Notes: a model not told the origin generated them from the sequence alone. A stretch of DNA of 32,000 nt from Nonlabens ponticola (GCF_003966335.1 NZ_CP034549.1:1380001-1412000), one strand, 5' to 3'; positions 3,891-22,654 are shown, numbered from the stretch's first letter. A program made the numbers and translations.

Positions 3891-6800
3891 CTACTTAATA
3901 ATGAATCGCTCTACGAGCGTTTCTTTTTTAGTCTCAATTTGTAGCATGTAAACACCTACGGCAAGATTACTCACGTTAATCGCTTGAGTGGTTTCACCTT
4001 GTAGTACCTGCTGTCCTTGCATGTTAAGCACACTATACTTGATGTTTTCAAGACTTGTCACTTTCACATTTAAGGTTCCGTTTTCAACTGGATTGGGATA
4101 AATCGAGAATAATGGCGCATCGTCTATTGGTGACTTATTCACCGCATATTGATAATCATTATTAGTAGCATTACCTAAACAGAAAGATTTTACATCTGTT
4201 CTAGTAAATGATCCACCTGATGCAAGTACAGCACCATTTGAACTGTTAGTCAATGCATAACTACCATTACCGTATTGGCAACAAATACCATCGCCGTAGG
4301 CATCAGTAAAAGTCAACGTATAACAATCCTCTGGCAACGTCAATGGAATGTTTACGGTAGAGCCGTCTGCTTGAGATGCATACGTTCCACCAGAGGCAAC
4401 TGTTGCGCCCGAACTATTAACTAACGTCCAGCTTGTCTCTTCTGGGTAGTTGTCAAAAGTAATTCTCAAGTTAGCTGCTACGGGTTGTGCTGCTGCACCA
4501 TCGGTGAGTTTCACATCATCGATAGCCATATCACCTTGCCATGTAGTTCCTGTAGTACCATTAAATCTCAATCTTACTGTTCCTGCACTATATGCTGATA
4601 AGTCAACGCTGGCATCTCTCCAGGCGTTACCTTGATTACCAGACTTGCTCCATACGGTTGACCAGCTCGCTCCATCATCTTCAGATGCTTGTAGCAATAG
4701 ACCACCCATATTGGTAGCACCATACATATGATACTTGAAGGTAAGTGTAGCATCACTTACTCCAGCAAGATCAAAACATGGCGAGTTTAATATTGCGGTT
4801 TTGGTGCTGTAGTTAGGTGCCGATGATTCCATGTAAACATAGTTAGAACCTTCGCTTGCGCTTGATGGTCCAGTTGCATTAGACGGCGTGCCACCGCTTC
4901 TACGAGTCCAGTTAAAATCATCGCCAGTCCCTTGAGTCCAGCCACCTAAACCAGATTCAAAACCTTCTGCATAAGGTGTTCCAGCTGTAGCCACACATCC
5001 AGCAGACGCCTCTGGCTCTGTAGTAAAGCTCACTGCCGCACTTTGATTACTGATGTTTCCAGCAGCATCTTTAGCTGCCACTCTAACTGAATAGTTTGTT
5101 CCAGCGGTCAATCCAGTCAAGTTTGCAGTTGTTCCTGCAAGAGAGCCTAGTAATGCACCATTTGAATACACATCATATTCTGTCACGCCAACATTATCTG
5201 TAGAAGCATTCCAGTTTAAGGATGCTGTAGTTTGTGTGATCGCGCTTACTACCACATTTGCTGGCACGCTAGGCGCCGTTTGATCAACTGGTGTAACATT
5301 TACTACATTAGAAGCATTGGACTTGTTTCCAGCTGCATCAACAGCTACAATACTAAAGCTGTAGGTCGTCCCAATAAATAATCCATTTACTACTTGACTT
5401 GTGTTAGTTGTTGTAGTAAGTAGATTAGAACCATTATAAACTTCATAGCCAGTCACGCCTACATTATCACTTGATGCATTCCAGACCAGAGTTGCAGAGG
5501 TCTCACTCACGTTATTTGCAACAAGTGAGCCTGGCGCTGTCGGTGCTGTTGTATCAGCGACAACGCTTCCTACATTCACCGTGTAATCTTCTACCTCGCC
5601 ATAGTCAAATGTTTCACAAGCTGTTGGCAACGCATTATATTTCATAGAAACTCTCAGGCGAGTTGCGCCACTCGCAGCACCACTCGGAACTGTAAATGAT
5701 CCAGAAATCAGTACATTTTGCGATGGTGCAGCAGTGAAGACTTGCTCACCAGCATCGTTGAAATCGCCATCTTGATTGTAATCAATCCACATTGCATAAG
5801 CCTCATTATACTTAGTTCCAGTCCATGTAGGCGTTATTTCTAAGGTGTATGAATCGCCAACTGCTAGGTCTGTGCTTGAGGCTGTAAAGTTGCTATAACC
5901 AGCTGCATTGCCCGTACTTGATTTATTGATCGCATTTAATTTGAAATTGCTGATGTACTCATCTGCCACGCTATTTCCTTTAGACGCACAGTACTGAACA
6001 CTGGTCGTAGAGAAATTGATTGTCGAGCTGTATGCACTTTGAGAACCGTCAGCACATACGCTTCTCACCTGAACTTGATAAGCTGTATTTGCAGTAAGTC
6101 CAGTAAGGTTTGCAGTCGCATTGTTAACTTGTTGTGTCGTCCATGCAGTTGTTCCGCTTTCGCGAAAGCGTACAACATAAGAAGCACTAGGAATTGCAGT
6201 CCATCCTATGGTGGCATCTTTGTCGCTTGCGCCGTTCAATTGAACGTTAGCCGGCACTGAAGCTACACATGGCTGTGCCTGTGCTGCGATTCCTGTAACG
6301 ATCAATGAATAATTCTGAGAACCGCCGGTAAGCGTTCCTTTATGGGTAACTCTTATGGTATAGGTCCCAGAGGCATTTGCTACAGTAATGCGCTCATAAG
6401 GATCTCTTGAATTGTCACCTAGTCCATTGGTATTAACCCCAGTCAATCTCCAAGGTAAAAACGTTGAGCCATTTTTAGAGACACGCACGTCAAGGTCATT
6501 GACAAGTCTAGCTGTGTTGCTATTTGTTGCTGTAGTTGCAACTCCAGCACGGTCAGTCCAAGAGATAGAAGCCATTAAGTCATTGATGCCATCAGAGTTC
6601 ACGGTAATCTCATATGTCTCACCAGCACTTAAAGTAAGTTCAGAAATTTGAGAAGCAGTTCCTTCATTGGTGATAACTTCTGCAGCCTTTTTAGTATTCA
6701 TTAAACCCCAACCGTAAATTGGATCTGGACCTACCATTCCAGCATCATCTGCCGTGTGTAGTGCAAGACCTTTTACCGTCGCAGCTCTCATGTATGAACC

Positions 6801-7913
6801 TGCTGTCTCATTGTGCAGCTGTTGTAACAATAGGAGTGAACCCATCACATTAGGTGACGCCATGGACGTTCCTGTGATTGAGTTGTAAGCTGTGTCGCTA
6901 GTTTCATAGGTAGAAAATACCTGTGTACCGTTACCAGTAATGTCTGGCTTAATTCTCAAATCATCAGTAGGACCTTCACTACTACTAGAGTTTATGGTCA
7001 CACTTCCTAAAGATCCGTCGCTGTTGATGACTGCGTCGTTTGCATTTGCTACTACCATGTTATTCTTTGCAGTTGCCGCGCCAGATAGTTTGTCATAAGC
7101 AGAATTGCCACCTAGTGGTGCACCATTGTAAGTATTCTGGTTACCATCGTTACCAGCGGCTTTTACCATTAAGAAATAAGGTGCATTGAACATCAACTCA
7201 TCCCAATCCCTAGAATCTGTGATGTAGGCGCCAAAATAATAGTCCGGCAATTGATCACCTCTATAACCATAAGAGTGGTTGGACAATAACATACCGTTGG
7301 CAGCTTGTGCGGCAACCTCGGCAGTATCATTGTTCCAGTCATGACCTACAGCTTTAGCCTGTGGTGCCATACCTTTTGCATTGGCATTTGCTCCATAAGC
7401 GATCACGGTACCTGTAACGTGGGCTGCGTGAAAGTTGAGTGTGGTAGAATTATCACCTATGGTAAAACGATTGTTACCACCAGGTCCATCATATTCCTGG
7501 TGCGTGCCGCGAGCCAGACCACCATCCCAAATGTAACCAGTCATATTTTGACCTTCTACATTAAGTCCTAATCCACCATTGTTGTGCAGGAAATTAGCGC
7601 GGGTAGATTTTGCAGCTGCTACATTATAGGTAGTGTAGTAAATAAGCGTACCGTCTGGATCAATGCGCTGCAATTCTTGATAGGATCCATCACTGGATTT
7701 TTGAATCATCGGGATATTCCCAGCGATGGCAGCAGCTCTCACAGCAGCTTTTTCAATTTTTTCTTTGGCCTCAAATTTTTGAGACAACTGTTGCAGATTG
7801 CTCACATCCATTCTGGATTTGATCTGCGCACGATCCTGCTCGGTTTGAGCAAATGAGATCGAGGTCATTACCGTCATAAGGGAAACGGATAACCAGGTAG
7901 TTTTTAAATTCAT
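3891..7913 (-). CDS. Secreted multidomain S8 (subtilisin/kexin-like) serine peptidase with a T9SS C-terminal sorting domain
   Basis: 1340 aa with a signal peptide (MNLKTTWLSVSLMTVMTSISFAQ). The S8 catalytic triad contexts are present: IWDGGLARGTHQE (D), HAAHVTGTV (H) and GTSMASPNVMGS (S). Next come a P-domain-like segment (SISWTDRAG...LVNDLDVRV) and three FN3-like repeats (e.g. ATLVWNASSDNVGVTGYEVY and ASLNWNASTDNVGVTEYDVY). A GEVED motif (DYGEVEDYTV), a MAM-like domain (GFESGLGGWTQ...FNWTRRSG) and a Cys-rich DAYGDGICCQYGNGSY module follow. The C-terminus has a Por/T9SS CTD (FSIYPNPVENGTLNVKV...VYMLQIE...ERFIIK). Confidence 0.9.
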   Translation of the reverse strand: MNLKTTWLSVSLMTVMTSISFAQTEQDRAQIKSRMDVSNLQQLSQKFEAKEKIEKAAVRAAAIAGNIPMIQKSSDGSYQELQRIDPDGTLIYYTTYNVAAAKSTRANFLHNNGGLGLNVEGQNMTGYIWDGGLARGTHQEYDGPGGNNRFTIGDNSTTLNFHAAHVTGTVIAYGANANAKGMAPQAKAVGHDWNNDTAEVAAQAANGMLLSNHSYGYRGDQLPDYYFGAYITDSRDWDELMFNAPYFLMVKAAGNDGNQNTYNGAPLGGNSAYDKLSGAATAKNNMVVANANDAVINSDGSLGSVTINSSSSEGPTDDLRIKPDITGNGTQVFSTYETSDTAYNSITGTSMASPNVMGSLLLLQQLHNETAGSYMRAATVKGLALHTADDAGMVGPDPIYGWGLMNTKKAAEVITNEGTASQISELTLSAGETYEITVNSDGINDLMASISWTDRAGVATTATNSNTARLVNDLDVRVSKNGSTFLPWRLTGVNTNGLGDNSRDPYERITVANASGTYTIRVTHKGTLTGGSQNYSLIVTGIAAQAQPCVASVPANVQLNGASDKDATIGWTAIPSASYVVRFRESGTTAWTTQQVNNATANLTGLTANTAYQVQVRSVCADGSQSAYSSTINFSTTSVQYCASKGNSVADEYISNFKLNAINKSSTGNAAGYSNFTASSTDLAVGDSYTLEITPTWTGTKYNEAYAMWIDYNQDGDFNDAGEQVFTAAPSQNVLISGSFTVPSGAASGATRLRVSMKYNALPTACETFDYGEVEDYTVNVGSVVADTTAPTAPGSLVANNVSETSATLVWNASSDNVGVTGYEVYNGSNLLTTTTNTSQVVNGLFIGTTYSFSIVAVDAAGNKSNASNVVNVTPVDQTAPSVPANVVVSAITQTTASLNWNASTDNVGVTEYDVYSNGALLGSLAGTTANLTGLTAGTNYSVRVAAKDAAGNISNQSAAVSFTTEPEASAGCVATAGTPYAEGFESGLGGWTQGTGDDFNWTRRSGGTPSNATGPSSASEGSNYVYMESSAPNYSTKTAILNSPCFDLAGVSDATLTFKYHMYGATNMGGLLLQASEDDGASWSTVWSKSGNQGNAWRDASVDLSAYSAGTVRLRFNGTTGTTWQGDMAIDDVKLTDGAAAQPVAANLRITFDNYPEETSWTLVNSSGATVASGGTYASQADGSTVNIPLTLPEDCYTLTFTDAYGDGICCQYGNGSYALTNSSNGAVLASGGSFTRTDVKSFCLGNATNNDYQYAVNKSPIDDAPLFSIYPNPVENGTLNVKVTSLENIKYSVLNMQGQQVLQGETTQAINVSNLAVGVYMLQIETKKETLVERFIIK
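6156..6169. repeat. GCTTTCGCGAAAGC palindrome copy (16-bp palindrome CGCTTTCGCGAAAGCG at 6155-6170)
   Basis: Exact 14-mer inside the S8 peptidase CDS, translated as RFRES. The flank on the reverse complement is GGAACAAC. Confidence 0.95.
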
Positions 7914-8190
7914 TTGTTTGGGTTTTGATTAAAACAGGCTAGAAAGAAACCAAAATTTGTGTTAACCAACTAAGGATTTGTACAGAGTTATTACCAACTA
8001 ATTATCATTTGTATAAACACGTATTATTATCCATCTCATAAACAGTTAATTACATAAAATTGACAAATGTTAAAATTTTAACTGCAGCTAAACGATTTAT
8101 CATTTCACTCGGTTAAGTGCTTTAGTTTTGTTGTTTTAGCAAGTTTCTAGTCTCAAATAATGCTAGATCGATAATTTGATAGCCAAAATC

Positions 8191-9000
8191 ATGAAAGACC
8201 AAAACCCAGACGTCTTAAAAGCCATCGAGATCAACAGGCAAACCTGGAACGATAGGACAAATGCTCATTATAGCAGTGGCTTTTATGATAGTTCCGCTTT
8301 CGCGAAAGCAAAAAATTCATTGAACTCCTACGAGATAAATGCTTTAGGAAATGTTACCGGCAAGTCTGTGCTGCACCTGCAATGTCATTTTGGGCAAGAC
8401 AGTCTGAGTTGGGCGCATAAAGGTGCTACAGTCACAGGCGTAGACTTTTCAGAAACAGCAATCAACAAGGCGCGAGAACTAAGTGCTGAGTTGAAGATTC
8501 CAGCCAAATTTGTTTCATGCAATGTTTTTGATACAGCATCTCATATCGATAAGAAATTTGACATCGTTTTTACCAGCTATGGAGTGATAGGCTGGTTACC
8601 AGATTTAAAGCCATGGGCACAAATGATTGCCACCATGCTCAAACCTGGTGGTACCTTTTATATGGTAGAGTTTCACCCAATCGCATGGATGTTTGATTAC
8701 CTAGAAAAGCCAGCCGTCATGAAATATCCATACTCAAATAAAGAGGTCATCTATGAGGAATACTCTGGCAGCTATGCCTCGACTGAAAGTGATTTGAACA
8801 GTAAGGAATATACTTGGAATCATCCCCTAAGCGAAGTGATACAATCCTTGATCGATGCAGGTCTCACCATCGAGCTTTTTGCAGAGCATGACGGCAGTCC
8901 ATATAATGTATTCCCAGAAATGACAAAAAAAGGAGATTTATATTATTTAGAAAACCAATTGTACCCTACTATTTTTGAGATTAAAGCCACAAGATCCTAG
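8191..9000 (+). CDS. Class I SAM-dependent methyltransferase
   Basis: The ORF-track entry 8176-9000 begins at a TTG, and the first ATG (8191, MKDQNPDV) is preferred. The SAM-binding motif context is VLHLQCHFGQDSLSWAHKGATVTGVDFS, followed by DIVFTSYGV. Confidence 0.75.
   Translation: MKDQNPDVLKAIEINRQTWNDRTNAHYSSGFYDSSAFAKAKNSLNSYEINALGNVTGKSVLHLQCHFGQDSLSWAHKGATVTGVDFSETAINKARELSAELKIPAKFVSCNVFDTASHIDKKFDIVFTSYGVIGWLPDLKPWAQMIATMLKPGGTFYMVEFHPIAWMFDYLEKPAVMKYPYSNKEVIYEEYSGSYASTESDLNSKEYTWNHPLSEVIQSLIDAGLTIELFAEHDGSPYNVFPEMTKKGDLYYLENQLYPTIFEIKATRS
8296..8309. repeat. GCTTTCGCGAAAGC palindrome copy
   Basis: Exact 14-mer inside the methyltransferase CDS, translated SAFAKA. The reverse-complement flanks are TTTTT...GGAAC. 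Confidence 0.95.
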
Positions 9001-9056
9001 CAGGTTAAACCTATGCTAATTGACCTGTGCTTATCACGCTAGCAAGTTGACTTAGT

Positions 9057-9064
9057 TATTTTTG
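9057..9064 (+). promoter_or_regulatory. Candidate -7 promoter box (TATTTTTG)
   Basis: Matches TAnnTTTG, 17 nt upstream of the GH3 ATG at 9082. Confidence 0.35.
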
Positions 9065-9081
9065 ACCAAATTTCAATTTTC

Positions 9082-10611
9082 ATGGCAATCCTAGGTCCTA
9101 TAATTAAAGCTGCACTCAACGTTCATGAGTATTTCACTCATGTAGATAATCATGTGGAGGCGCAGGAAAAAGTATTGCAGAATTTGCTTGATAAAGCAAA
9201 GGACACGGCCTTTGGAGAGAACTATGACTTTAATTCTATCCTGGCATCAGACGAGCCTGCGGCCATGTTTGCAGATGCAGTACCTTATCATGACTATAAC
9301 TCTATGGATGAGAAATGGTGGCAACGTATTAAAAAAGGTGAGGAAAATGTAACCTGGCCTGGCTTGCCCAACTACATGGCGCGCAGCAGTGGCACTACTG
9401 GCAAGAAATCAAAGATGATTCCCGTAACAGACGAAATGCTGGATGCCATTAGAGCTGCCGGAACTCGACAAGTAAGCTCGCTAACCAATTTTGATCTGGA
9501 TGCCGAGGTTTTTGAAAAAGAGGCGCTGGCACTAGGTAGCAGTACAGATCTTGATGAAGTTGATGGCTTTAAAGTAGGTGAGATTAGCGGTATCGCAGCC
9601 AGTAATATTCCTGAATTTCTGGAAAGTAAGTATCGTCCTGGTAGTGAGATCTCACGCATTGACGATTGGGATGAGCGTGTGGAGCGCATTGCACAGGAAT
9701 CGGGTGATTGGGATATTGCCATGATAAGCGGCATACCGTCATGGCTAGAAATGATGCTTAAAAAAGTGATGGATCACCATGGTGTGGACAGCATTCACGA
9801 TGTATGGCCTTCCTTGAGTGTTTATACATCAGGTGGCGTGGCGTTCGAGCCATATCGCAAAAGCTTTGAGAAGCTATTTTCAAAACCTGTTCAAATCGTG
9901 GACACCTATCTAGCGAGTGAAGGGTTCATCGCTTGCCAGCAGCGACAGGAGACAGATTCTATGCAATTGATTACGGATGGTGGCATCTACTTTGAATTTG
10001 TACCCTTTAAACCAGAATACATAGAGCCAGACGGCAGCATCTCGCAAAATGCACCAGCGCTTACCATGGCTCAAGTGGAAAAGGATGTGGATTACGTATT
10101 AATCATCTCCACGGTCAGTGGTGCATGGCGCTATTTGATAGGCGACACTATTGCTTTTACAGATGTCGATCACGCCGAAATCAAAATTACAGGTCGCACC
10201 AAATTCTTTTTAAACGTTGTTGGTAGCCAGCTTTCAGTTTTGAAAATGGAAAAAGCAGTTCAAGAACTGCAGGAGCAATTCAATACCAGTATCAAAGAGT
10301 TTACCGTGTATGCTCGACAGGATGATCAAGGAGATTTTTATCACTATTGGTATCTGGGAACTGATACAGAAACTAGTGAAGAAGACTTGAAAGAGGCCCT
10401 GGACCAATCATTACAGGAAGCTAACAAAAACTATAAGGTAGCTAGAACAAAAGCCTTGAAAGGAGTAAAAGTCACTAAGGTAGATCCAGATATTTTTGCT
10501 GCCTGGAACGAGCATCAAAAAAAGAAAGGCGGACAGGTAAAAATGGCCAAGGTATTATCTGACGATAAGCAAGAGGCTTGGGAAGAATTTGTTACTAATT
10601 ACAAAGGGTAA
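9082..10611 (+). CDS. GH3-family (auxin-responsive GH3-like) acyl-acid amido synthetase homologue
   Basis: 509 aa. It has the adenylating-enzyme P-loop-like motif ARSSGTTGKKSKMIPVT characteristic of GH3 proteins, and its size is typical of bacteroidetal GH3 family proteins. Confidence 0.75.
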   Translation: MAILGPIIKAALNVHEYFTHVDNHVEAQEKVLQNLLDKAKDTAFGENYDFNSILASDEPAAMFADAVPYHDYNSMDEKWWQRIKKGEENVTWPGLPNYMARSSGTTGKKSKMIPVTDEMLDAIRAAGTRQVSSLTNFDLDAEVFEKEALALGSSTDLDEVDGFKVGEISGIAASNIPEFLESKYRPGSEISRIDDWDERVERIAQESGDWDIAMISGIPSWLEMMLKKVMDHHGVDSIHDVWPSLSVYTSGGVAFEPYRKSFEKLFSKPVQIVDTYLASEGFIACQQRQETDSMQLITDGGIYFEFVPFKPEYIEPDGSISQNAPALTMAQVEKDVDYVLIISTVSGAWRYLIGDTIAFTDVDHAEIKITGRTKFFLNVVGSQLSVLKMEKAVQELQEQFNTSIKEFTVYARQDDQGDFYHYWYLGTDTETSEEDLKEALDQSLQEANKNYKVARTKALKGVKVTKVDPDIFAAWNEHQKKKGGQVKMAKVLSDDKQEAWEEFVTNYKG

Positions 10612-10638
10612 TCTAGCAATACAATTTAATAGGATTGC

Positions 10639-10652
10639 GCTTTCGCGAAAGC
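10639..10652. repeat. GCTTTCGCGAAAGC palindrome copy
   Basis: Exact 14-mer in the spacer between the convergent GH3 and HExxH genes. The reverse complement reads GTTTT-GCTTTCGCGAAAGC-GCAAT. Confidence 0.95.
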
Positions 10653-10694
10653 AAAACTTTACAAAACGTTATAAAGATGACGGACTCCTAAATG

Positions 10695-11279
10695 TTAACT
10701 CATTTCCTGCATACTAGGCTTCTCGCCAGTCTCGCCGTATCTGTTGATCAGCTCTGCAATTTCTTCTGGCGACAAGTAGAATTGGCGCATGTGGTTCTTG
10801 TATTTATCAGACAGACTAGTGTGATTTAAAATGAAGTTTTTGGTTTTTAAGATGTAATTACCCATGCCGTGCTTTACTGCATAGTCATCTGCTGCACGTT
10901 CAACTTCTTTGATATGTGCTTTGGAATACAAGTATTTTAAACCAAAAAAGATCATACCTATGGTAGATCGAGATCTATAATCCATCACGTGTCCCAATTC
11001 GTGACCCAACCAGCCTACCAACACATCATCAGGGATCTCATCAATAGTAAAAAATTTGTCTTCAACCTGAAACTTCTTGCTAATTAAAATGATGTAGGCT
11101 CGGTTTTTACGAGAGGTAAAAAGGCTTTTCCATTTAGGTTGCGCCTGCATAAAATTCTTGCGCACCATATCGTTGAATTTAAATTCAACCTCGGTGTCTT
11201 GCAATTCGGGATAATAAGATAGCGCTTGTTCTGCTTCATTTTGAATGCTTTGTGGCGCAATAAGTTTAGGATACTTCAT
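10695..11279 (-). CDS. Putative zinc metallopeptidase (HExxH motif; M48/WLM-like), function unknown
   Basis: 194-aa ORF with LGHELGHVMDY (HExxH) and a downstream acidic segment ERAADDYAV. I could not assign it to a specific family by eye. Confidence 0.5.
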   Translation of the reverse strand: MKYPKLIAPQSIQNEAEQALSYYPELQDTEVEFKFNDMVRKNFMQAQPKWKSLFTSRKNRAYIILISKKFQVEDKFFTIDEIPDDVLVGWLGHELGHVMDYRSRSTIGMIFFGLKYLYSKAHIKEVERAADDYAVKHGMGNYILKTKNFILNHTSLSDKYKNHMRQFYLSPEEIAELINRYGETGEKPSMQEMS

Positions 11280-11333
11280 TAATTGAAAGATACTGGTAAT
11301 GCGTTCATAGGTCGTGAAAAATGCGTTAAATGA

Positions 11334-11359
11334 AAAAGCATCGCCGCCGCGATGCTTTT
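11334..11359 (-). terminator. Rho-independent terminator downstream of the TonB-dependent receptor
   Basis: AAAAGCATCGC-CGCC-GCGATGCTTTT forms an 11-bp stem with a 4-nt loop. On the minus strand the stem ends in a U-run and is followed by UCAUUU. It lies 23 nt after the stop at 11382. Confidence 0.6.
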
Positions 11360-11381
11360 AAAAAATTGATAGGCTGGCCAA

Positions 11382-13583
11382 TTAAAATCTACCAATAATT
11401 CCTGCATTGATACCAAATGGATGTCCAGGTCGCAAACCAGCTGGTTGTCTGGATACAGCATAATCGTTGTCCAGTAGATTTATCACATTAGTTGTCAGGC
11501 TTACACGAGGACTTAAATGATATCTAGCAGATAAGTCCACTACAAAGTTGCTGTCCACACGATTGGCAGTAGCAATATCACCGCTTCCTGCAATCGTGCG
11601 CATCTCGCCGACAAATCTTGCATTGGCATTGATATCAAATCTCGCATTGGTCAATCCAGCAATGATGTTCCATTGATGATTTGCTATATATGGTATCTCA
11701 TCACCCACTTGAACCTCTCCATAAACATCACTATCAAACGCATTACGGAATTCTGTATCAGTATAAGTGTAGTTTACAGTGATAGGTAAGCCAAATCGTA
11801 AATTAGATTCCAGTAAATCATAACTCAAACTTAGCTCAAGACCGGCAACGTTGACTTCGCCAGCATTAAAAAGATCCGTGGTACCGCCACCACCAGCTGC
11901 TGCAAGATCACTACCTAATAAGTTACTGTAATCGTTAAAGAATAGGGTTGTCTCACCACGCAGTTTGCCGATAAGGTACCTACTTCCCAACTCATAATTG
12001 ATGCTGCTTTCTTCCTCAACATCTGGCGAACTTCCTGGAGGCGAGAAACCTTTATGTACACCACCAAAGAATGCTAGTCGATTATTCCATCTATAATGAG
12101 CACCGATTCCTGGAATAAATACCGAAATGTTATTTTCTCTTGAGGAAAGATCGCTGCCAGTTCTATTGACGTCATCGCTACCAAAATTATTTCTGGACAG
12201 CTTGATATCCTCATATCGCAGGCCAGGCGTTAAGGTCAGTTTATTAAAGTTAAACGTGTAGAGTGCATGTAGAGCAATCGCTTGCGCATCGCTTACGCGA
12301 TTTGCGTCGGTTCCTGGTGTGCCTGCTGTGGTACGATTTAAGGCACCGTTGTCTATTCCATAAAGATCTACCCATTGAAAACGATCTTCTTGATCCTCAT
12401 GATAGCGAGCGCCAACTTCTAGTTCCTGTCTCGCTGTCTCACCCCAATTGATGCGAGCTACCGTTTGAACGCCACGAGAATAGTAAACGCGGTTATTGTT
12501 CTTTACTCCAAAAACATCATCATCTGTATCTTCTTGACTAGAGACTGCTGCAAACTCATCAGCAAATTCATCTGGTCGATCAAGAATATTGTTGATCTTG
12601 ACTTTACCATCACCTGTATCTACATAATCAAGTTTGTACCAGTTGCGCTTGAAGTTATTGGAATATCCAGTTGTTGTTATGGATATGTTGCTCGCAGGTT
12701 TGATAAAATGAGTTAGCTGTATTTGATCATGCTCTTGATCAATTTGATCTGCTGCGCTGGATAAATAGCGACGGTAAGGATCTGTTTCAAAATCTGCATC
12801 GGTAAGGCCTAAGTAAGTCTCATTATCAAGGCCTTCACTGTATTGAAGTTTTAAGGTGACTGATTGAAATACTTTAGCATCTGCGCTGGAGTTGTAGCGC
12901 ACTTTGGTAGTGTAATCATTGCGGTCAAAACCTGTGTTGCCGCCACCATCGAGACTTTTAAAGCCATCGCTATTGAAGTTGAGGTACTCTGCGACAAACC
13001 CAAAATGCTCGCCAGAATCACCTACTCGCAGTTCTGTTTGTCTCGTATTGTAATTTCCAAAATTGATGCGACCGTAGCCTTGCAAGTCAGATGGTACTGC
13101 GCTGGATACAAAATTGATAGCACCACCAGTAGTAAATGGGCCGTATTGAATCTGACTGCTACCTTTGAGAACCTCAACAGACTGCATGCGTGCTACATTA
13201 GGAAAATAATAAGCTGCTGGAGCAGAGTAGGGCGCTGGCGCGATCAATACACCATCTTCCATCAAGGTGATTTTAGAAGAACGTTCTGCTTGGGTTCCTC
13301 TTAGAGAGATATTAGGACGCAAACCAAAACCATCTTCTTCGGTAATATTCACACCAGGAACTTTCAATAGAACCCGATTGACATCTGTGTAATTGAATCT
13401 TTCCAGCTCTTCGGCGGTTACTTTGTATGAACTACCAGTGCGATTTAGCTTTTCAAATCGGCTTCCAAAAAGCGATCGCTGTTTCAAATAAATCGACTCA
13501 AGATTGTTGATGCTGTCATTAGTTTGAGCAAAAAGGGTACTTGCAGAAATCAGCGCCAATCCTGTTAAAAATATTCTTATCAT
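11382..13583 (-). CDS. TonB-dependent outer-membrane receptor (siderophore/metal-chelate type, not SusC-like)
   Basis: 733 aa with a signal peptide (MIRIFLTGLALISASTLFAQ). The plug domain motifs are DVNRVLLKVPGVNITEEDGFGLRPNISLRGT. It has a long beta-barrel and a C-terminal aromatic residue (GIIGRF). Confidence 0.85.
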   Translation of the reverse strand: MIRIFLTGLALISASTLFAQTNDSINNLESIYLKQRSLFGSRFEKLNRTGSSYKVTAEELERFNYTDVNRVLLKVPGVNITEEDGFGLRPNISLRGTQAERSSKITLMEDGVLIAPAPYSAPAAYYFPNVARMQSVEVLKGSSQIQYGPFTTGGAINFVSSAVPSDLQGYGRINFGNYNTRQTELRVGDSGEHFGFVAEYLNFNSDGFKSLDGGGNTGFDRNDYTTKVRYNSSADAKVFQSVTLKLQYSEGLDNETYLGLTDADFETDPYRRYLSSAADQIDQEHDQIQLTHFIKPASNISITTTGYSNNFKRNWYKLDYVDTGDGKVKINNILDRPDEFADEFAAVSSQEDTDDDVFGVKNNNRVYYSRGVQTVARINWGETARQELEVGARYHEDQEDRFQWVDLYGIDNGALNRTTAGTPGTDANRVSDAQAIALHALYTFNFNKLTLTPGLRYEDIKLSRNNFGSDDVNRTGSDLSSRENNISVFIPGIGAHYRWNNRLAFFGGVHKGFSPPGSSPDVEEESSINYELGSRYLIGKLRGETTLFFNDYSNLLGSDLAAAGGGGTTDLFNAGEVNVAGLELSLSYDLLESNLRFGLPITVNYTYTDTEFRNAFDSDVYGEVQVGDEIPYIANHQWNIIAGLTNARFDINANARFVGEMRTIAGSGDIATANRVDSNFVVDLSARYHLSPRVSLTTNVINLLDNDYAVSRQPAGLRPGHPFGINAGIIGRF

Positions 13584-15023: not shown

Positions 15024-15027
15024 GATG

Positions 15028-15035
15028 CAAAGGTA
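15028..15035 (-). promoter_or_regulatory. TAnnTTTG match (TACCTTTG) only 4 nt upstream of the hemY ATG
   Basis: The minus strand reads TACCTTTG-CATC-ATG. If functional, it implies a leaderless or near-leaderless hemY transcript. It could also be a chance match. Confidence 0.2.
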
Positions 15036-15050
15036 AGTCTTGAATAGATT

Positions 15051-15113
15051 AGTTATCAGTTATCAGTTGACAGTCAACGGTTGTCGGTGGATAGCTGTCG
15101 TGGATCAGTTTTC
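15051..15113. repeat. Degenerate heptamer-phased tract (AGTTATC-like units), including the 13-bp palindrome GTTGACAGTCAAC (15066-15078)
   Basis: Read in 7-nt steps: AGTTATC AGTTATC AGTTGAC AGTCAAC GGTTGTC GGTGGAT AGCTGTC GTGGATC AGTTTTC. The 7-nt phase is the same as that of the perfect heptamer array starting 15173 (15051 + 18x7 = 15177). Confidence 0.5.
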
Positions 15114-15172
15114 AATGAACGATTATTGATTTTAACTTCTTAATTATGTGTTCCTTTCGGCCAATTCGTTAT

Positions 15173-15256
15173 TTCCATATTCCATATTCCATATTCCATA
15201 TTCCATATTCCATATTCCATATTCCATATTCCATATTCCATATTCCATATTCCGTA
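15173..15256. repeat. Heptanucleotide tandem array: (TTCCATA) x 11 perfect copies plus a 12th copy with one mismatch
   Basis: Perfect units start at 15173, 15180, 15187, 15194, 15201, 15208, 15215, 15222, 15229, 15236 and 15243. Unit 15250-15256 is TTCCGTA. The array is intergenic, between the divergent hemY and guaB genes. Confidence 0.95.
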
Positions 15257-15328
15257 CTCGATAGTTCAATTATAAGTTTAAGTTCAATATTCCGTACTCG
15301 ATAGTTCAATTATAAGTTTAAGTTCAAT
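15247..15328. repeat. Perfect tandem duplication with a 40-bp period
   Basis: Positions 15247-15288 are identical to 15287-15328. The unit is TATTCCGTACTCGATAGTTCAATTATAAGTTTAAGTTCAA. The first copy begins inside the last heptamer units, so the second copy also starts with ATATTCC. Confidence 0.95.
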
Positions 15329-15337
15329 CCATCTTCC

Positions 15338-15361
15338 TAAGTCATAACTCTTAAGTCATAA
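15338..15361. repeat. Direct repeat TAAGTCATAA x 2 with a 14-bp period
   Basis: TAAGTCATAA occurs at 15338-15347 and 15352-15361. TAAGT-containing motifs also recur inside the 40-bp unit. Confidence 0.8.
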
Positions 15362-16947
<1,586 letters not shown>

Positions 16948-16948
<1 letters not shown>

Positions 16949-17562
16949 TGAAAATCATTTGCATAGGCCGCAATTATGCCAAACATATTGAGGAGCTGGA
17001 CAACGAGCGTCCCGTTGAGCCTGTAGTTTTCATGAAGCCGGATACATCCATTTTATTGGATAAGAATCCGTTTTTTATTCCAGAATTCTCAAATGATGTT
17101 CATCATGAAGTAGAGGTTGTGGTTAAGATCAATCGCTTGGGTAAGCACATCGATAAAAAATTTGCCCATAAATACTATCAAGAAATAGGTCTAGGTATTG
17201 ATTTTACCGCACGAGATGTGCAACAACGTTGCAAGGAGCAAGGTTTGCCATGGGAAAAGGCAAAGGCCTTTGATGGTGCTACCGTAGTTTCTAGAAAGTT
17301 TATCGACAAGAATGATCTAGGTGATTTAGGACAGCTGGACTTTCAGTTACATAAAAATGGCGAGTTGCAACAAGATGGCAATACAAGTCACATGTTATGG
17401 AATATTGATGAGATCATAGCCTATGTTTCTACCTTTTTCACGCTTAAAATAGGAGACCTTATCTTTACCGGCACTCCATCAGGAGTTTCCCGCGTCATAG
17501 AGAATGACGAGCTAGTTGGCACTTTGAGTGGTCAACAATTATTTTCAATTAGAGTAAAATGA
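16948..17562 (+). CDS. Fumarylacetoacetate hydrolase (FAH) family protein
   Basis: 204 aa. MKIICIGRNYAKHIEEL...PVVFMKPDTSIL and GDLIFTGTPSGV are typical of small FAH-fold hydratase/isomerases. Its ATG overlaps the guaB stop (TAATG). Confidence 0.8.
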
Positions 17563-17897
17563 GTAAACGATATAATCTAGATAACATCAAGGTACTTTCA
17601 GACAACGACCCAGAGTTTATCAAATCCATGGTCGAGGTGTTTTGCCTGGAAATACCACAGGATCTAGAAAACCTGGCGACTGGTGTGGTAGAAGATGATA
17701 GGAATAAGGTACACGAGTACGCCCATAAGATCAAGCCTACGGTAGAGATGTTTGGTTTAAGTACGCATACAGATGTTCTAGTACTAGAAGCTTGGGGTAA
17801 GTCACAGGATCCTATGGATATCAGTGAGCACTTTATGCGCGTACAAGAGGATTTACAGGCTACGGTAAAGCAACTTAAAGAAGATTTTCCGCAATGA
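17559..17897 (+). CDS. Stand-alone Hpt (histidine phosphotransfer) domain protein
   Basis: 112 aa, predicted all-helical. VHEYAHKIKPTVEMFGL resembles the Hpt phospho-accepting helix (HxxKG-type). It has ATGA overlaps with both neighbours (17559-17562 and 17894-17897). Confidence 0.6.
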   Translation: MSKRYNLDNIKVLSDNDPEFIKSMVEVFCLEIPQDLENLATGVVEDDRNKVHEYAHKIKPTVEMFGLSTHTDVLVLEAWGKSQDPMDISEHFMRVQEDLQATVKQLKEDFPQ

Positions 17898-19150
17898 TCG
17901 CGACCATCATTACCATAGGTGATGAAATCCTTATAGGTCAAATTGTCGATACTAATTCTGCATGGATGGCTCGAGAGCTTAATCGTGTTGGGGTTTCAGT
18001 TCTTGAGATCATGTCTATTAGTGATGATGAGGATCATATAGTTTCAGCTTTCGCGAAAGCGGAACAACAATCAGACATCGTTCTAGTCACCGGCGGATTG
18101 GGACCTACCAAAGACGACGTTACCAAGACTGCTTTATGCACATATTTTCAAGATGAGCTGGTACTTGACGAGGCTACCTTGCAACACGTCAAAGATCTGT
18201 TTGCCAAATATGTAAAAGACAAATTGTTGCCCGCTAATGAGACGCAGGCGATGCTACCGTCAAAAGCCACGATTTTAAAAAATGAATACGGCACCGCACC
18301 TGGAATGTTGTTGGTGAATAATGACACCACGTTTGTATCCATGCCAGGTGTGCCCTTTGAGATGAAGGCGTTGATGATCAATCACGTGATACCTTATATA
18401 GTAGAAAAAGGTGAGTTACCTTATATATATCACAGGACGATCTTGACAGCTGGACAAGGTGAGAGTACCATCGCGCACAGGATTGAGCAATGGGAAAACT
18501 TATTGCCAAGTCATGTAAGCCTTGCATATTTGCCTAGTTTAGGATCTGTAAGACTGCGATTGTCGTGCAAAGGAATGGACAAGGAACAGGTAACTCGCGA
18601 TGTTGATGCGCAGGTGGATCAATTGTATGGATTGTTAGCAGATATTATAGTAGGCGAGAGCAACGACGAGACACTTTCACAACAGATAAGTGCCTTGTTT
18701 AAGAGTCAAGAAAAAACACTTGCCGTTGCAGAAAGTTGTACCGGCGGCCAAATCGCGCAACAATTGACACAACATCCAGGCGCGTCACAATTTTTCAAAG
18801 GAGCTTCTGTCACCTATGCAACCCAGTCAAAAGTGGATTTGCTAGACGTAGATCAAGCCTTGATAGATAAATATAGTGTGGTGAGTGAAGAAGTTGCTAT
18901 TGCCATGGCAATAGGTGCGAGAAAAAAATTTAAGGCAGACGTTGCTGTTTCTACCACAGGTAACGCTGGTCCAGATAAGGGCGATAGTGATGTAGCCGTA
19001 GGAACTGTTTGTATAGGTATTGCTACTGGTGATCAACAATATGCTCTCAAATTCATGATGGGAAATCATAGAGAACGTGTGATTCAAAAAACAGTCAATA
19101 AGTCGATGGAACTATTGCAAAAAGAATTATTAAAAAAGGCAGTAATTTAG
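17894..19150 (+). CDS. cinA: CinA family protein (competence/damage-inducible protein A; MoCF-binding N-domain plus nicotinamide-nucleotide amidohydrolase PncC-like C-domain)
   Basis: 418 aa. The N-terminus reads IITIGDEILIGQIVDTNSAWMA...VTGGLGPTKDDVTK. The C-domain reads LAVAESCTGGQIAQQLT...STTGNAGP. Confidence 0.9.
   Translation: MIATIITIGDEILIGQIVDTNSAWMARELNRVGVSVLEIMSISDDEDHIVSAFAKAEQQSDIVLVTGGLGPTKDDVTKTALCTYFQDELVLDEATLQHVKDLFAKYVKDKLLPANETQAMLPSKATILKNEYGTAPGMLLVNNDTTFVSMPGVPFEMKALMINHVIPYIVEKGELPYIYHRTILTAGQGESTIAHRIEQWENLLPSHVSLAYLPSLGSVRLRLSCKGMDKEQVTRDVDAQVDQLYGLLADIIVGESNDETLSQQISALFKSQEKTLAVAESCTGGQIAQQLTQHPGASQFFKGASVTYATQSKVDLLDVDQALIDKYSVVSEEVAIAMAIGARKKFKADVAVSTTGNAGPDKGDSDVAVGTVCIGIATGDQQYALKFMMGNHRERVIQKTVNKSMELLQKELLKKAVI
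18047..18060. repeat. GCTTTCGCGAAAGC palindrome copy
   Basis: Exact 14-mer inside cinA, translated SAFAKA. The 22-nt GCTTTCGCGAAAGCGGAACAAC (18047-18068) is identical to the reverse complement of 6148-6169. Confidence 0.95.
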
Positions 19151-19209
19151 ATTTGTGGGATTGAATTAATATTCGTTATTTTGCAGTCCGATTTTAAACA
19201 CAGATAATC

Positions 19210-19449
19210 ATGTCACGAGTTTGTGAACTTACTGGTAAGAGAGCGATGTCGGGAAACAATGTTTCTCACGCGATGAATAAGACTAAGCGTCGTTTTAACG
19301 TGAACCTTTTCAAGAAGCGTTTTTACCTACCTGAAGAAGATAAGTGGATCACACTACGTGTATCTGCAAGAGCGATAAAGAACATCAATAAAAAGGGAAT
19401 TACCCAAGTTGTGAAAGAAGCACGTGCAAACGGCATCTTGAGCAAGTAA
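19210..19449 (+). CDS. rpmB: 50S ribosomal protein L28
   Basis: 79 aa. [33 protein letters not shown] is the canonical bL28 N-terminus. Confidence 0.95.
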
Positions 19450-19470
19450 TTCTATTTAATACATTACAAG

Positions 19471-19653
19471 ATGGCAAAGAAAGGAAATAGAATTCAAGTA
19501 ATCCTTGAATGTACTGAGCATAAAGAGACTGGTAAGCCAGGAACTTCTCGTTACATCACTACTAAGAATAAAAAGAATACGCCAGACCGCCTGGAATTGA
19601 AGAAATTCAACCCAGTATTGAAGCGTATGACTGTTCATAAAGAAATTAAATAA
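19471..19653 (+). CDS. rpmG: 50S ribosomal protein L33
   Basis: 60 aa. [48 protein letters not shown] is the canonical bL33 sequence. Confidence 0.95.
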
Positions 19654-19659
19654 TAAGAC

Positions 19660-19812
19660 ATGGCAAAGAAATCAGTAGCAACCCTACAAACTGGGTCAAA
19701 GAGATTAACTAAAGCCATTAAGATGGTTAAGTCACCTAAAACTGGTGCCTACACATTTGTGAGTGCTATCATGGCTCCAGAATTAGTAAACGACTTCTTG
19801 AACAAGAAGTAA
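19660..19812 (+). CDS. DUF4295-like small basic protein (50 aa)
   Basis: Below the track cutoff. Hand translation gives MAKKSVATLQTGSKRLTKAIKMVKSPKTGAYTFVSAIMAPELVNDFLNKK. It starts 6 nt after the rpmG stop and is followed by a strong terminator. The rpmB-rpmG-DUF4295 order is a conserved Bacteroidetes arrangement. Confidence 0.7.
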   Translation: MAKKSVATLQTGSKRLTKAIKMVKSPKTGAYTFVSAIMAPELVNDFLNKK

Positions 19813-19831
19813 GTTGGTTAGTTAAGATGAT

Positions 19832-19865
19832 AAGACCGCGTTGCGATAGCAGCGCGGTCTTTTTT
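19832..19865 (+). terminator. Rho-independent terminator of the rpmB-rpmG-DUF4295 operon
   Basis: AAGACCGCGTTGC-GATA-GCAGCGCGGTCTT forms a 13-bp stem including one G-U pair, followed directly by a T-run. Confidence 0.85.
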
Positions 19866-19951
19866 GTTTAATGATCGCGCATAACCAGCGATGCTTATAG
19901 CCCTGATTATTAAAGTTCACTTGACTAACTTTACAGCACCAACGATAAACT

Positions 19952-20905
19952 ATGAGTTTTTTTAAAAACATATTTAATAAAGAGAAAAAGGAGACCCTTG
20001 ATAAGGGTCTTGAGAAGTCCAAAAATAGTTTTCTCGACAAGCTAGGAAAGGCAGTTGCAGGTAAGTCCAAAGTTGACGATGACCTACTCGATGATCTTGA
20101 AGATGTACTGGTTTCAAGTGATGTAGGCGTTGCCACAACCATCAAAGTCATCAATAGGATTGAAGAGCGAGTTGCAAGAGATAAATATCTAGGAACCGAA
20201 GAGCTCAATAAAATACTGCGTGAGGAAATTGCAGGATTGCTAAGCGAGGTAAATAGCGGCAACGCTACGGAATTCTCCATACCAGAGACCAAAGGACCTT
20301 ATGTAATCATGATTGTAGGCGTCAATGGTGTTGGTAAAACGACAACCATAGGTAAGCTGGCACATCAATTTAAGAAAGCTGGTAAAAAAGTAGTATTAGG
20401 AGCTGGCGATACCTTTAGAGCGGCAGCGGTGGATCAATTACAGATTTGGGCAGATAGAGTAGGCGTCGATATCGTCAAGCAAAAGATGGGAAGCGATCCA
20501 GCTAGCGTCGCATACGACACCTTGCAGAGTGCTGTCGCAAACAATGCCGATGTGGTATTGCTAGACACGGCAGGAAGACTACATAACAAGATCAACTTGA
20601 TGAATGAGCTTACTAAAATCAAGCGCGTCATGGATAAAGTTATCCCAGAAGCACCGCACGATGTCATGCTGGTACTCGATGGTTCTACGGGACAAAATGC
20701 CTTTGAACAGGCAAAACAATTTACTGCTGCAACCGAAGTAAGCTCACTGGCGATTACTAAATTGGATGGTACTGCCAAAGGTGGTGTCGTCATAGGAATA
20801 TCAGATCAATTCCAGATTCCTGTGAAATATATAGGAGTAGGTGAAGGCATGGAAGACCTGCAGGTATTCAATAAAATTGAATTTGTTGACAGCTTCTTTA
20901 ATTAG
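19952..20905 (+). CDS. ftsY: Signal recognition particle receptor FtsY
   Basis: 317 aa. SRP GTPase motifs are present: IVGVNGVGKTTTIGKLA, DTAGRL, TKLDGTAKGG and YIGVGE. Confidence 0.95.
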   Translation: MSFFKNIFNKEKKETLDKGLEKSKNSFLDKLGKAVAGKSKVDDDLLDDLEDVLVSSDVGVATTIKVINRIEERVARDKYLGTEELNKILREEIAGLLSEVNSGNATEFSIPETKGPYVIMIVGVNGVGKTTTIGKLAHQFKKAGKKVVLGAGDTFRAAAVDQLQIWADRVGVDIVKQKMGSDPASVAYDTLQSAVANNADVVLLDTAGRLHNKINLMNELTKIKRVMDKVIPEAPHDVMLVLDGSTGQNAFEQAKQFTAATEVSSLAITKLDGTAKGGVVIGISDQFQIPVKYIGVGEGMEDLQVFNKIEFVDSFFN

Positions 20906-20986: not shown

Positions 20987-22654
20987 ATGAGATTTTTGTA
21001 CTTATTTCTATTCGTTTTTATTGTTGCCTGTGGCCCATCTCAAAATGCTACCACGCAAGAAAATAATGGGGAACAAGAAGCCAAGGCTTCTCAAGAGCCT
21101 AAGGAGCTAGAAGAAATGGATTTCAAGGTACTGGATTCTAAATACATCACTAGAGATGATGTTTTTGCAGTTTTGAAGGCTGATGTGTTACGCTTTCGCG
21201 AAAGCTCGCCTAGCGGTAATCGCAAGAAAGACGAAATGAACGAGTACGTACTCGAGAAAACCATACCTGAAATACAAAGCGCGATTTATGAGAATAAATT
21301 TACCTATAGGGATCTAGCATTGTTTTATCTGGATAGGATTTATCGCTATGACCGCAATAACGAGCTTTCCTTAAACAGTGTCATCTCACTTAATCCTAAG
21401 GTCTTAGAACAAGCAACTGCTGCGGATAAGCGCATGGATCAAATGAAATCCTATGGCGAGTCCTTCAATCCATATACGATCACAGGTATGCCTATCCTAT
21501 TAAAGGATAACATCAATACGGCCGACATGCCAACGACTGCTGGCGCTGCAACATTGATGGAAAATCAAACAAGAGATGCACAGATAGTGACCAATTTGAA
21601 AGATGCCGGTGCGATTATTTTAGGGAAGGCCAACTTGAGCGAATGGGCATATTTTTTCTGTGGAGATTGCCCAAGCGGCTACAGCGCTGTCGGTGGTCAA
21701 ACATTAAGTCCCTATAAACGCAAGTTTATTGATACAGGTGGATCGAGTAGTGGTAGCGGTGTTAGTGTCGCTGCAAATCTAGCGGTTGCCGCGGTAGGAT
21801 CAGAGACAAGTGGATCTATACTGTCACCTAGTTCTCAAAATTCTGTGGTTGGGTTCAAGCCTAAAGTGGGTACTTTATCTGGTGACGGCATCGTGCCTAT
21901 TTCCAGTTATCTTGATACTGCTGGCCCGATGGCAAAAAGTGTAATAGATGCGGCTATACTTATGCAAGCGCTAACTGGTGATACGTCAAATGCTTTTATT
22001 GACAATACGTTACTTAAAAAACTTGATGAAGCTAGTTTGAAGGGTAGAAGATTTGGTATTTTCCCAGACTTTAAATCAAATCCATTGTATGCAAAAGCCA
22101 TTCAAGATGTTAAGAATCTGGGTGGTGTCATCGTTGAATTGCCTGCACGAGAAGTGCAACTCAATAATTTCTTGACGGTCTTGAATGCAGATATGCGTCA
22201 AGATTTACCGGCTTATTTTAAGGAAAGTGCAAATAAGAAATACAATGGTTGGGATGTTGGTAAGGTAATGATGGAGAATCGCAAGGACAGTATCAATGCC
22301 ATGCCTTATGGGCAAAGACTTTTTCAAGGAATCATGGACGAGAAAGAAATGACTGATGCTGAATTCCTTGCCGTCAAAAATAATATTACGGCAAACGCAC
22401 AAAATTATTTTGATAGCTATATAAATGATTATGGACTGGATGGTTTTTTATCCATCAATAATTACAGTGCAGGAATAGCAGCGGTAGGATTTTATCCTGC
22501 ATTGACTGTACCTATGGGTTATGACTTGAATGGTGTTCCCTATGGATTGACTTTTATAACTAAGGATGATTTGTCCCGACAGCTATTCGTATGGGCAGCA
22601 GCTTATGAAAACGCTTATCCTAAAAGAAAGATACCTTCTAATTATACCAAATAA
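20987..22654 (+). CDS. Amidase-signature (AS) family amidase, probable lipoprotein
   Basis: 555 aa with a lipoprotein-type signal (LFVFIVAC). AS motifs are present: ILLKDNINT (Lys), GGSSSGSGVSVAANLAVAAVGSETSGSILSPS (cis-Ser/Ser). Confidence 0.85.
   Translation: MRFLYLFLFVFIVACGPSQNATTQENNGEQEAKASQEPKELEEMDFKVLDSKYITRDDVFAVLKADVLRFRESSPSGNRKKDEMNEYVLEKTIPEIQSAIYENKFTYRDLALFYLDRIYRYDRNNELSLNSVISLNPKVLEQATAADKRMDQMKSYGESFNPYTITGMPILLKDNINTADMPTTAGAATLMENQTRDAQIVTNLKDAGAIILGKANLSEWAYFFCGDCPSGYSAVGGQTLSPYKRKFIDTGGSSSGSGVSVAANLAVAAVGSETSGSILSPSSQNSVVGFKPKVGTLSGDGIVPISSYLDTAGPMAKSVIDAAILMQALTGDTSNAFIDNTLLKKLDEASLKGRRFGIFPDFKSNPLYAKAIQDVKNLGGVIVELPAREVQLNNFLTVLNADMRQDLPAYFKESANKKYNGWDVGKVMMENRKDSINAMPYGQRLFQGIMDEKEMTDAEFLAVKNNITANAQNYFDSYINDYGLDGFLSINNYSAGIAAVGFYPALTVPMGYDLNGVPYGLTFITKDDLSRQLFVWAAAYENAYPKRKIPSNYTK
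21192..21205. repeat. GCTTTCGCGAAAGC palindrome copy
   Basis: Exact 14-mer inside the amidase CDS, translated RFRES. The reverse-complement flank is GTAACAC. Confidence 0.95.

Follow-up and report, generated by a model that had tools for sequence, protein, structure and literature searches.

A strict 14–16-nt palindrome of Nonlabens and Dokdonia, changed in place by substitution and comparable to HIP1 and uptake sequences

Hyper-abundant DNA words that spread by substitution are a known kind of genomic sequence. Cyanobacterial HIP1 (Highly Iterated Palindrome 1; GCGATCGC) reaches up to one copy per 350 nt and has gone unexplained for three decades. The uptake signal sequence (USS) of Pasteurellaceae and the DNA uptake sequence (DUS) of Neisseriaceae are lineage-specific words with weaker extended flanks, which accumulate by point mutation, are evenly spaced, lie within coding DNA in tolerated frames, are enriched between genes and are conserved at orthologous positions; to our knowledge uptake sequences are known only from two proteobacterial families. 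Chi occurs about once per 4.5–5 kb in E. coli. HIP1 sites are conserved and periodically distributed, at a density above one per gene, and their periodicity has been interpreted as nucleoid-related (PMC5861425). HIP1 is also associated with cognate orphan methyltransferases (PMC4390886), enhances natural transformation efficiency, with a Chi-like role suggested (10.1101/2024.09.10.611283), and has been proposed as an uptake sequence (10.64898/2026.06.24.733823). Among the Flavobacteriales, Riemerella columbina favours its own DNA in transformation, no motif having been reported for it (PMC7965970). Here a perfect 14-nt palindrome, GCTTTCGCGAAAGC, is described that is present in eight exact copies in a 32-kb stretch of Nonlabens ponticola DNA (the window, meaning that whole stretch) and whose copies, followed through related genomes, arise and vanish in place through point substitutions.

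The core of the word is the strict 14-mer, usually extended to the 16-mer CGCTTTCGCGAAAGCG; in the unbiased set of sites the outside base that completes the 16-mer is present in 79% of half-sites. Markov models of order 0–3, trained on the window with the copies masked, predict 6e-6 to 1e-4 copies of GCTTTCGCGAAAGC per window, placing the excess at about 1e5-fold, and zero copies were obtained in 100 dinucleotide-preserving shuffles of the window. A window search for near-variants returned none with one or two mismatches, and allowing up to three added a single extra match, a 3-mismatch one. Five copies lie within genes, where they span all three reading frames, and the remaining three are intergenic. 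An earlier reading, made from the sequence only, had reported the five genic copies as AFAKA, RFRES and LSRK peptides in all three frames; translation and Pfam gene identities confirm this inventory, from which the intergenic copies at 10639, 25691 and 30171 were missing. The copies are as follows.

Copy 1, 6156–6169: within the S8 peptidase gene (3891–7913, minus strand), in an FN3-like domain; read RFRES (VVRFRESGTT).
Copy 2, 8296–8309: within a class-I S-adenosylmethionine (SAM) methyltransferase gene (8191–9000, plus strand); read AFAKA (SSAFAKAKNS).
Copy 3, 10639–10652: intergenic, between a convergent GH3-family gene (ends 10611) and an open reading frame (ORF) of 194 aa (10695–11279, minus strand).
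Copy 4, 14360–14373: within the protoporphyrinogen oxidase gene (13713–15023, minus strand); read LSRK (VVTLSRKQNN).
Copy 5, 18047–18060: within cinA (17894–19150, plus strand); read AFAKA (VSAFAKAEQQ).
Copy 6, 21192–21205: within the amidase gene (20987–22654, plus strand); read RFRES (VLRFRESSPS).
Copy 7, 25691–25704: intergenic, between a divergent 427-aa ORF and a MiaB-like radical-SAM gene.
Copy 8, 30171–30184: intergenic, between a divergent ABC-F ATPase gene (28147–30027, minus strand) and the ORF 30255–31118.

The identities of the motif-bearing genes are backed by Pfam; the CinA of the window (418 aa) is 100% identical to that of Nonlabens ponticola, and the sole methyltransferase in the window is of the class-I small-molecule type. 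The 22-nt identity GCTTTCGCGAAAGCGGAACAAC between the peptidase copy (6148–6169, reverse complement) and the cinA copy (18047–18068), of which the methyltransferase copy has 19 nt in common, was correctly reported in the sequence-only reading. Our arithmetic from flank frequencies gives an 8-nt flank coincidence a chance of ~5% among 16 half-sites, and the identity between copies 1 and 5 therefore needs no explanation of its own.

Alignment of the motif-bearing proteins with their homologues bears out the earlier preference for in-place conversion over insertion, as the motif columns hold no indel and gains and losses proceed by substitution. In CinA, 120 homologous proteins and 86 genomic loci display zero gaps within 12 residues on either side of the motif, the columns being fixed as SAFAKAE in Nonlabens and occupied by KALKEA, KSLQEA or EAFAAA in other genera. 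Similarly, the protoporphyrinogen oxidase alignment is ungapped over 39 homologues, with LSRK kept in Nonlabens and LSKA, LSNA or LHTA outside the genus, while RFRES of the S8 peptidase FN3 domain aligns without gaps to RYRL, RYRV, QYRE or RYRE in homologous domains. Distant orthologues thus carry other amino acids at these positions, not the same amino acids in unrelated codons. The amidase motif columns lie ungapped over an ancestral x-F-x-E-x; N. dokdonensis and N. arenilitoris share the site, four other Nonlabens lack it and differ by substitutions only, and gain of the word forces amino-acid replacement, for example KFREQ to RFRES. Directly after the amidase motif, at residues ~74–81, N. 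ponticola and three other Nonlabens have a 6–8-residue insertion (SPSGNRKK-like) that is absent in other Flavobacteriaceae; this indel is independent of the motif, since it occurs in species that lack the motif and is missing from N. dokdonensis and N. arenilitoris, which bear the motif. The methyltransferase site is present in all four available orthologues (N. tegetincola, N. xiamenensis, Hel1_33_55 and N. arenilitoris), and a search for an outgroup orthologue of this gene found none.

The same behaviour extends beyond these five genes. The copy-3 region of Hel1_33_55 has no motif and differs by substitutions and small indels, with no element-sized insertion. Within the MiaB-like gene, N. 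marinus and Hel1_33_55 have a perfect site, which is represented by a 1-mismatch intermediate in one metagenome-assembled genome (MAG) and is unrecognisable, yet collinear and altered by substitutions only, in N. ponticola, N. dokdonensis and N. arenilitoris. Blastn finds an orthologue of copy 7 in the CANLKV MAG, upstream of the MiaB-like gene, and this MAG aligns to N. arenilitoris; in N. dokdonensis a copy lies 53 nt upstream of the gene. An independent copy stands in the CinA of a Dokdonia MAG, displaced by 2 codons with the length unchanged. The insertion model is rejected because the motif columns are ungapped and because pairs of sites with and without the word differ by substitutions.

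Constraint on the word acts at the level of DNA. The cinA copy is found at offset 153 in nine of nine Nonlabens species and in locus L327. In the cinA codon alignment of the nine species, where mean pairwise nucleotide identity is 67.5%, invariant third-codon positions amount to 28/418 (6.7%) gene-wide versus 5/5 inside the motif. The 15-nt sequence GCTTTCGCGAAAGCG, invariant in all nine, is the longest invariant run in cinA, the next being 8 nt. Identity between copies goes beyond what a shared peptide needs: each of the 30 AFAKA peptides found in loci of the motif clade is encoded by the word, in identical codons, and neither AFAKA nor RFRES occurs in 1.39 Mb of other Flavobacteriaceae (76 control loci among the matches listed). 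The peptides exist because of the DNA word and not the reverse, and within genes the copies occupy spots that tolerate AFAKA, RFRES or LSRK, where they override codon and amino-acid choice. Drift as the origin of the word, already judged insufficient in the sequence-only reading, is excluded by the cross-species conservation together with the 1e5-fold excess.

The word has a narrow taxonomic range. A flavobacterial scan of cinA loci, one genome per species, covered at least 80 loci including two Nonlabens and two Dokdonia, and among the loci listed GCTTTCGCGAAAGC is confined to these four, being absent from the 76 others (1,393,903 nt, dozens of genera). A comparable iterated 11-mer of their own was sought in the same 76 loci and none was found. 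Eight more loci, obtained via CinA orthologues (N. marinus, N. dokdonensis, Hel1_33_55, N. arenilitoris, three MAGs and Dokdonia Hel_I_53), hold 3–8 exact copies per 19–21 kb. The clade loci comprise 53 copies in 227 kb, and the density in all sampled Nonlabens and Dokdonia loci is one per 2.6–7 kb, with Dokdonia Hel_I_53 (L328) carrying mostly perfect copies at one per 2.6 kb. Dokdonia sp. R86516 (L003) has eight TTTCGCGAAA cores, four of which (7643, 8118, 11267 and 21089) deviate in the outermost two bases (GCTTTCGCGAAAAA, ATTTTCGCGAAAGC, GTTTTCGCGAAAGC); these variants may represent a looser 'dialect' of the word, with the constraint slightly relaxed at its ends. A metagenome scan with the 16-mer recovered 104 low-GC loci (674 kb) with 171 perfect copies, against 18 one-mismatch and 21 two-mismatch sites, while 16 high-GC loci have single copies each, at chance level. 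These metagenome loci, like the phage loci described below, are independent of cinA synteny, and the metagenome ORF calls are crude. Near-perfect copies occur at similar density in every sampled locus, random metagenome contigs included, and extrapolation from one copy per ~3.5–4 kb predicts several hundred copies in a chromosome of Nonlabens or Dokdonia (2.9-Mb genome).

Copies are distributed more evenly than random placement allows. Spacing was compared with random placement and also with a null in which coding and intergenic copies, their numbers kept, stay within their own class. The gaps in the genome loci display a coefficient of variation of 0.52–0.54 versus 0.88–0.89, and a smallest gap of 1.6 kb versus a simulated median minimum of 65 nt; at most 1 gap below 1.5 kb was observed where 18 are expected at random. 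The metagenome set replicates this result, with a coefficient of variation of 0.55 versus 0.87–0.89 and 9 gaps below 1.5 kb versus 27 expected, and none of 3,000–20,000 simulations attained the observed evenness. The window alone gives P = 0.001, and the gap mode is 3–4 kb. As the class-preserving null is beaten in both the genome and the metagenome sets, even spacing is not an artefact of intergenic preference. That preference is itself pronounced: 73 of 171 metagenome copies (43%) are intergenic versus 14% non-coding DNA, a ~3-fold enrichment (P = 2e-19), and across sets the intergenic share is 28–43%. Within genes the frame use of the metagenome set is 58:23:17, the AFAKA frame being favoured. 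The intergenic copies have no bias for convergent gene ends (9 convergent, 10 divergent, 34 tandem), and no fixed distance to stops or starts was found.

Outside the core, symmetric weaker flanks extend over ~13–19 nt. Read outward 5' to 3', G is near absent from +4 to ~+13 and low to ~+19, and A peaks at every third base (+3/+4, +7, +10 and +13), so that 5' of the core either strand is rich in T and G and poor in C. Strictly non-coding copies show this pattern more strongly than genic ones do, which means that it is not a codon artefact; the non-coding metagenome copies give it P = 3e-13, and a second, independent set of sites gives P = 2e-8. Identity between copies collapses beyond the 16-mer, and flank self-complementarity within a site is no higher than between flanks paired across different sites, which rejects extended site-specific inverted repeats of the repetitive extragenic palindromic (REP) type. 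With identity ending at the 16-mer and flanks that form no site-specific inverted repeats, nothing indicates template copying; terminal repeats and target duplications around the copies are likewise absent. The single-stranded 16-mer is predicted to fold into a plain 6-bp hairpin of -4.3 kcal/mol, and neither Rfam covariance models at gathering thresholds nor a tRNA search gave a match in the window; the weak hairpin and the lack of an Rfam match dismiss a structured RNA. An intrinsic terminator was similarly dismissed, as on each strand the T-rich flank precedes the hairpin and the A-rich flank follows it, the reverse of a terminator, and as the copies show neither convergent-end preference nor a constant offset from starts or stops. 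On both strands the word's 3' half equals the sequence of d(GCGAAAGC), which forms an extraordinarily stable mini-hairpin (PMC13037366). In contrast to that mini-hairpin the predicted fold of the 16-mer is weak, and the match may be coincidental.

Phage DNA divides into carriers and non-carriers of the word. Most matches in viral contigs either occur once each, in DNA whose composition is unrelated, or come repeatedly from one high-GC phage family, and these lack the flank pattern of the clade. A group of related low-GC phage contigs holds several copies each; one of them (L175), with genes for portal, protease, capsid and adaptor proteins, carries 3 copies within 12 kb, and in a relative 65–75% identical to it one site is kept and another has 1 mismatch. 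Members of this group encode integrases, which suggests that the group is temperate. A motif-bearing phage gave no blastn match to cultured phages and only a distant Cellulophaga phage in a protein search. The cultured Nonlabens phages P12024S (L325) and P12024L (L326), 35.7 kb each and without an annotated integrase, have zero copies even at up to two mismatches, where ~9 would be expected at host density (Poisson P = 1e-4). Because these two phages carry none, DNA that merely replicates in these cells does not gain the word, and, set against the integrase-encoding contigs, they suggest that a long stay in the chromosome is what counts.

Further observations concern the same phages and the sampled loci. 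In two related integrase-encoding phage contigs the palindrome adjoins the integrase gene: it lies 7 nt from the stop codon in L122 (palindrome 2735–2748; integrase 2756–3952, minus strand) and 0 nt from it in L199 (palindrome 10000–10013; integrase 10014–11216, minus strand). As attP sites are often situated beside the integrase gene, phages of this type might integrate at or beside the host word. P12024S and P12024L have no TCGCGA, versus ~3.7 expected from composition by our arithmetic, and a DNA methyltransferase gene is present in each; TCGCGA is not avoided by the host chromosome, the window having 6 copies outside the motif. Its absence from the phages could be a faint sign of host restriction directed at TCGCGA. 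In the window, GC skew flips with gene orientation (near 8, 11, 15, 23 and 25 kb), and DnaA-box-like 9-mers (TTATCCACA, up to one mismatch) number 19 versus 9.5 expected but are scattered; on these grounds, and with the motif at the same density in unrelated loci, a replication origin or parS-like cluster in the window was rejected. A Nonlabens MAG (L085, 4046–7124) has a restriction-modification cassette with a C5 DNA methylase, an HNH protein and an HpaII-type endonuclease in the place of the TonB-dependent receptor and protoporphyrinogen oxidase genes of other species. An unrelated flavobacterial MAG (L073, 6367–6900) has six tandem 102-nt coding repeats (…AAAGCAGAAGGTGATTTA…), which belong to an ordinary repeat protein and not to an iterated genomic word.

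A literature search returned no paper with the 14-mer or the 12-mer and none that ties Nonlabens or Dokdonia to such a repeat. HIP1 resembles the word in being a perfect palindrome, hugely over-represented, present in all frames and between genes, spread by substitution, conserved beyond coding needs and quasi-regularly distributed. The two differ in sequence and hosts, GCGATCGC being an 8-nt cyanobacterial word and GCTTTCGCGAAAGC a 14–16-nt word of Flavobacteriaceae, so that the latter is an analogue and not a member of HIP1. At one per ~4 kb the word is also ~4–10 times sparser, its excess is ~1e5-fold versus 15–300-fold, it is restricted to few genera where HIP1 is phylum-wide, and unlike HIP1 it has extended G-poor, triplet-periodic flanks. 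With USS and DUS it shares lineage specificity, even spacing, origin by point mutation, intergenic enrichment and orthologous conservation. However, USS and DUS are asymmetric, 9–12 nt long and present at ~1 per kb, whereas the word is palindromic and, at ~0.25 per kb, 3–4 times sparser; they frequently occur as inverted pairs with a terminator function, a contrast to the intergenic copies here with their lack of convergent-end preference; and their uptake bias has been shown by experiment, while the word is known from sequence alone. Chi, a self-DNA marker, has a similar density but is a 5–8-nt asymmetric, replication-oriented sequence read on single-stranded DNA by RecBCD or AddAB, whereas the word is its own reverse complement and has no orientation. 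RecA prefers GT-rich DNA, which the T/G-rich strand 5' of the core resembles. What is new here is the phylum, the strict 14–16-nt palindrome, the spacing and the flank architecture.

A word that is strict, formed in place, conserved with some turnover, evenly spaced, intergenic-preferring, clade-specific and absent from two cultured phages is probably one that something in the cell reads and that selection or population-level drive keeps. Overall, the observations are best explained, at somewhat better than even probability, by a lineage-specific genomic 'signal word' of the HIP1/USS kind, kept by selection or drive, with a self-DNA tag as its likeliest role. Two explanations that the genic copies bring to mind have little left to them. 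Selection for the peptides AFAKA, RFRES and LSRK, or chance codon usage, would account for the recurrence of the peptides and nothing more, and has a negligible probability given one DNA word in three frames with 28–43% of copies between genes, AFAKA codons that are all identical, the absence of AFAKA and RFRES from the relatives searched, and synonymous positions frozen inside the motif. Insertions of a small mobile palindromic element, such as Rickettsia palindromic elements, miniature inverted-repeat transposable elements (MITEs) or REP sequences with their RAYT transposases, would explain a repeated palindrome within unrelated genes, and the Rickettsia elements are indeed repeated palindromic DNA that is translated inside genes. 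However, such elements are 20–150-bp insertions that leave an indel relative to orthologues, whereas the word has 14–16 conserved nt and no indel in five genes and up to 120 homologues; nothing is conserved past the 16-mer, terminal repeats and target duplications are lacking, and motif-less orthologous sites differ by substitutions. REP elements are moreover extragenic and clustered, in contrast to the single, evenly spaced copies found here. A mobile element does not fit, is refuted for the copies examined and is very improbable as a general account.

Two further rivals accept that the copies arose in place. In one, the word is the functionless by-product of a neutral sequence-specific process: very-short-patch-like repair, methyltransferase-linked correction or gene conversion. 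This would suit copies that arise by substitution and are essentially all perfect, and the centre of the word contains TCGCGA and CGCG, typical methyltransferase targets, as HIP1 has its cognate orphan methyltransferases (PMC4390886). It predicts neither the even spacing nor the 3-fold intergenic preference, two phages that replicate in Nonlabens have no copy or near-match, and inter-copy identity stops at the 16-mer with no hint of template copying. Moreover, 14–16 nt are too short for homologous gene conversion, and we know of no repair enzyme with 14–16-nt specificity. The active templated or biased-repair mechanism proposed in the sequence-only reading finds no support, on these same grounds; even spacing, intergenic enrichment and motif-free phages point to selection or drive acting on point mutations and not to a repair bias on all DNA, and a cell-wide bias is considered unlikely, the neutral by-product as a whole being improbable. 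In the other, the word serves a chromosome-structuring or nucleoid-associated protein as its high-affinity site, comparable to the Noc-binding site (NBS), the SlmA-binding site (SBS), the matS site of MatP or the nucleoid role first proposed for HIP1, with the spacing setting loop or domain size and with no part in uptake or recombination. Architectural sites such as parS, NBS, SBS and matS are likewise palindromic and of 12–16 bp; a perfect dyad core suits a dimeric binder of double-stranded DNA, the even 3–4 kb spacing and the conservation of sites across species fit such a role, HIP1 periodicity has been so interpreted (PMC5861425), and the copies lie in integrase-encoding phage contigs, presumably chromosomal at times, and not in the two integrase-unannotated cultured phages. 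On the other side, the 3-nt flank periodicity is not expected from a reader of B-form DNA and the reader protein is hypothetical. The architectural sites known elsewhere run to tens of copies per genome, with degeneracy tolerated, whereas the word extrapolates to several hundred copies, almost all perfect. An architectural site is thus unlikely, although a serious competitor.

The signal-word explanation leaves the role of the word to be argued by analogy. The most likely role, to which slightly less than even probability is given, would be that of a self-DNA tag in DNA uptake and/or homologous recombination. A host factor would read the word, most simply as a symmetric dimer on the double-stranded core, and every stretch of a few kb would gain from one copy; near-matches would be fixed as perfect copies by selection and by a bias in uptake or recombination. 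The T/G-rich, C-poor 5' flank would have the composition expected of a preserved, RecA-friendly 3' tail, and the triplet flanks may point to a single-stranded-DNA filament protein, by comparison with DnaA-trios and the GT preference of RecA. A bolder form of this proposal, offered tentatively and rather less likely to hold, is that the 16-mer is the first sequence-specific self-DNA signal in Bacteroidota for natural transformation and/or recombination, palindromic and read by a dimer, with T/G-rich triplet 5' flanks that load a filament protein of the RecA/DprA type: a hybrid of uptake sequence and bidirectional Chi that arose independently of USS, DUS and HIP1. Several points weigh against the self-DNA tag and the signal word. 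The function is inferred entirely; a strict 14–16-nt palindrome at ~0.25 per kb is unlike the asymmetric 5–12-nt uptake sequences and Chi; and an architectural DNA-binding site would account just as well for the conservation, the intergenic preference and the even spacing. In addition, the distribution rests on ~1 Mb of sampled loci, not whole chromosomes, with a genome set largely syntenic around cinA, and the copy number expected for the two cultured phages uses the density of the clade, not that of their actual host IMCC12024.

As a HIP1-like or uptake-like word in culturable marine Flavobacteriaceae, the palindrome provides a second, independent comparison case, in which a DNA-level signal has rewritten codons, even in conserved protein segments, across a genus. 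The 16-mer is specific enough for pull-downs, chromatin immunoprecipitation (ChIP), DNA affinity purification sequencing (DAP-seq) and clean uptake assays on motif-bearing and motif-free DNA, and constructs into which the word is built might serve as better genetic tools in these bacteria. In marine metagenomes it is a sharp taxonomic marker of the lineage and a marker that separates integrated from non-integrating phages.

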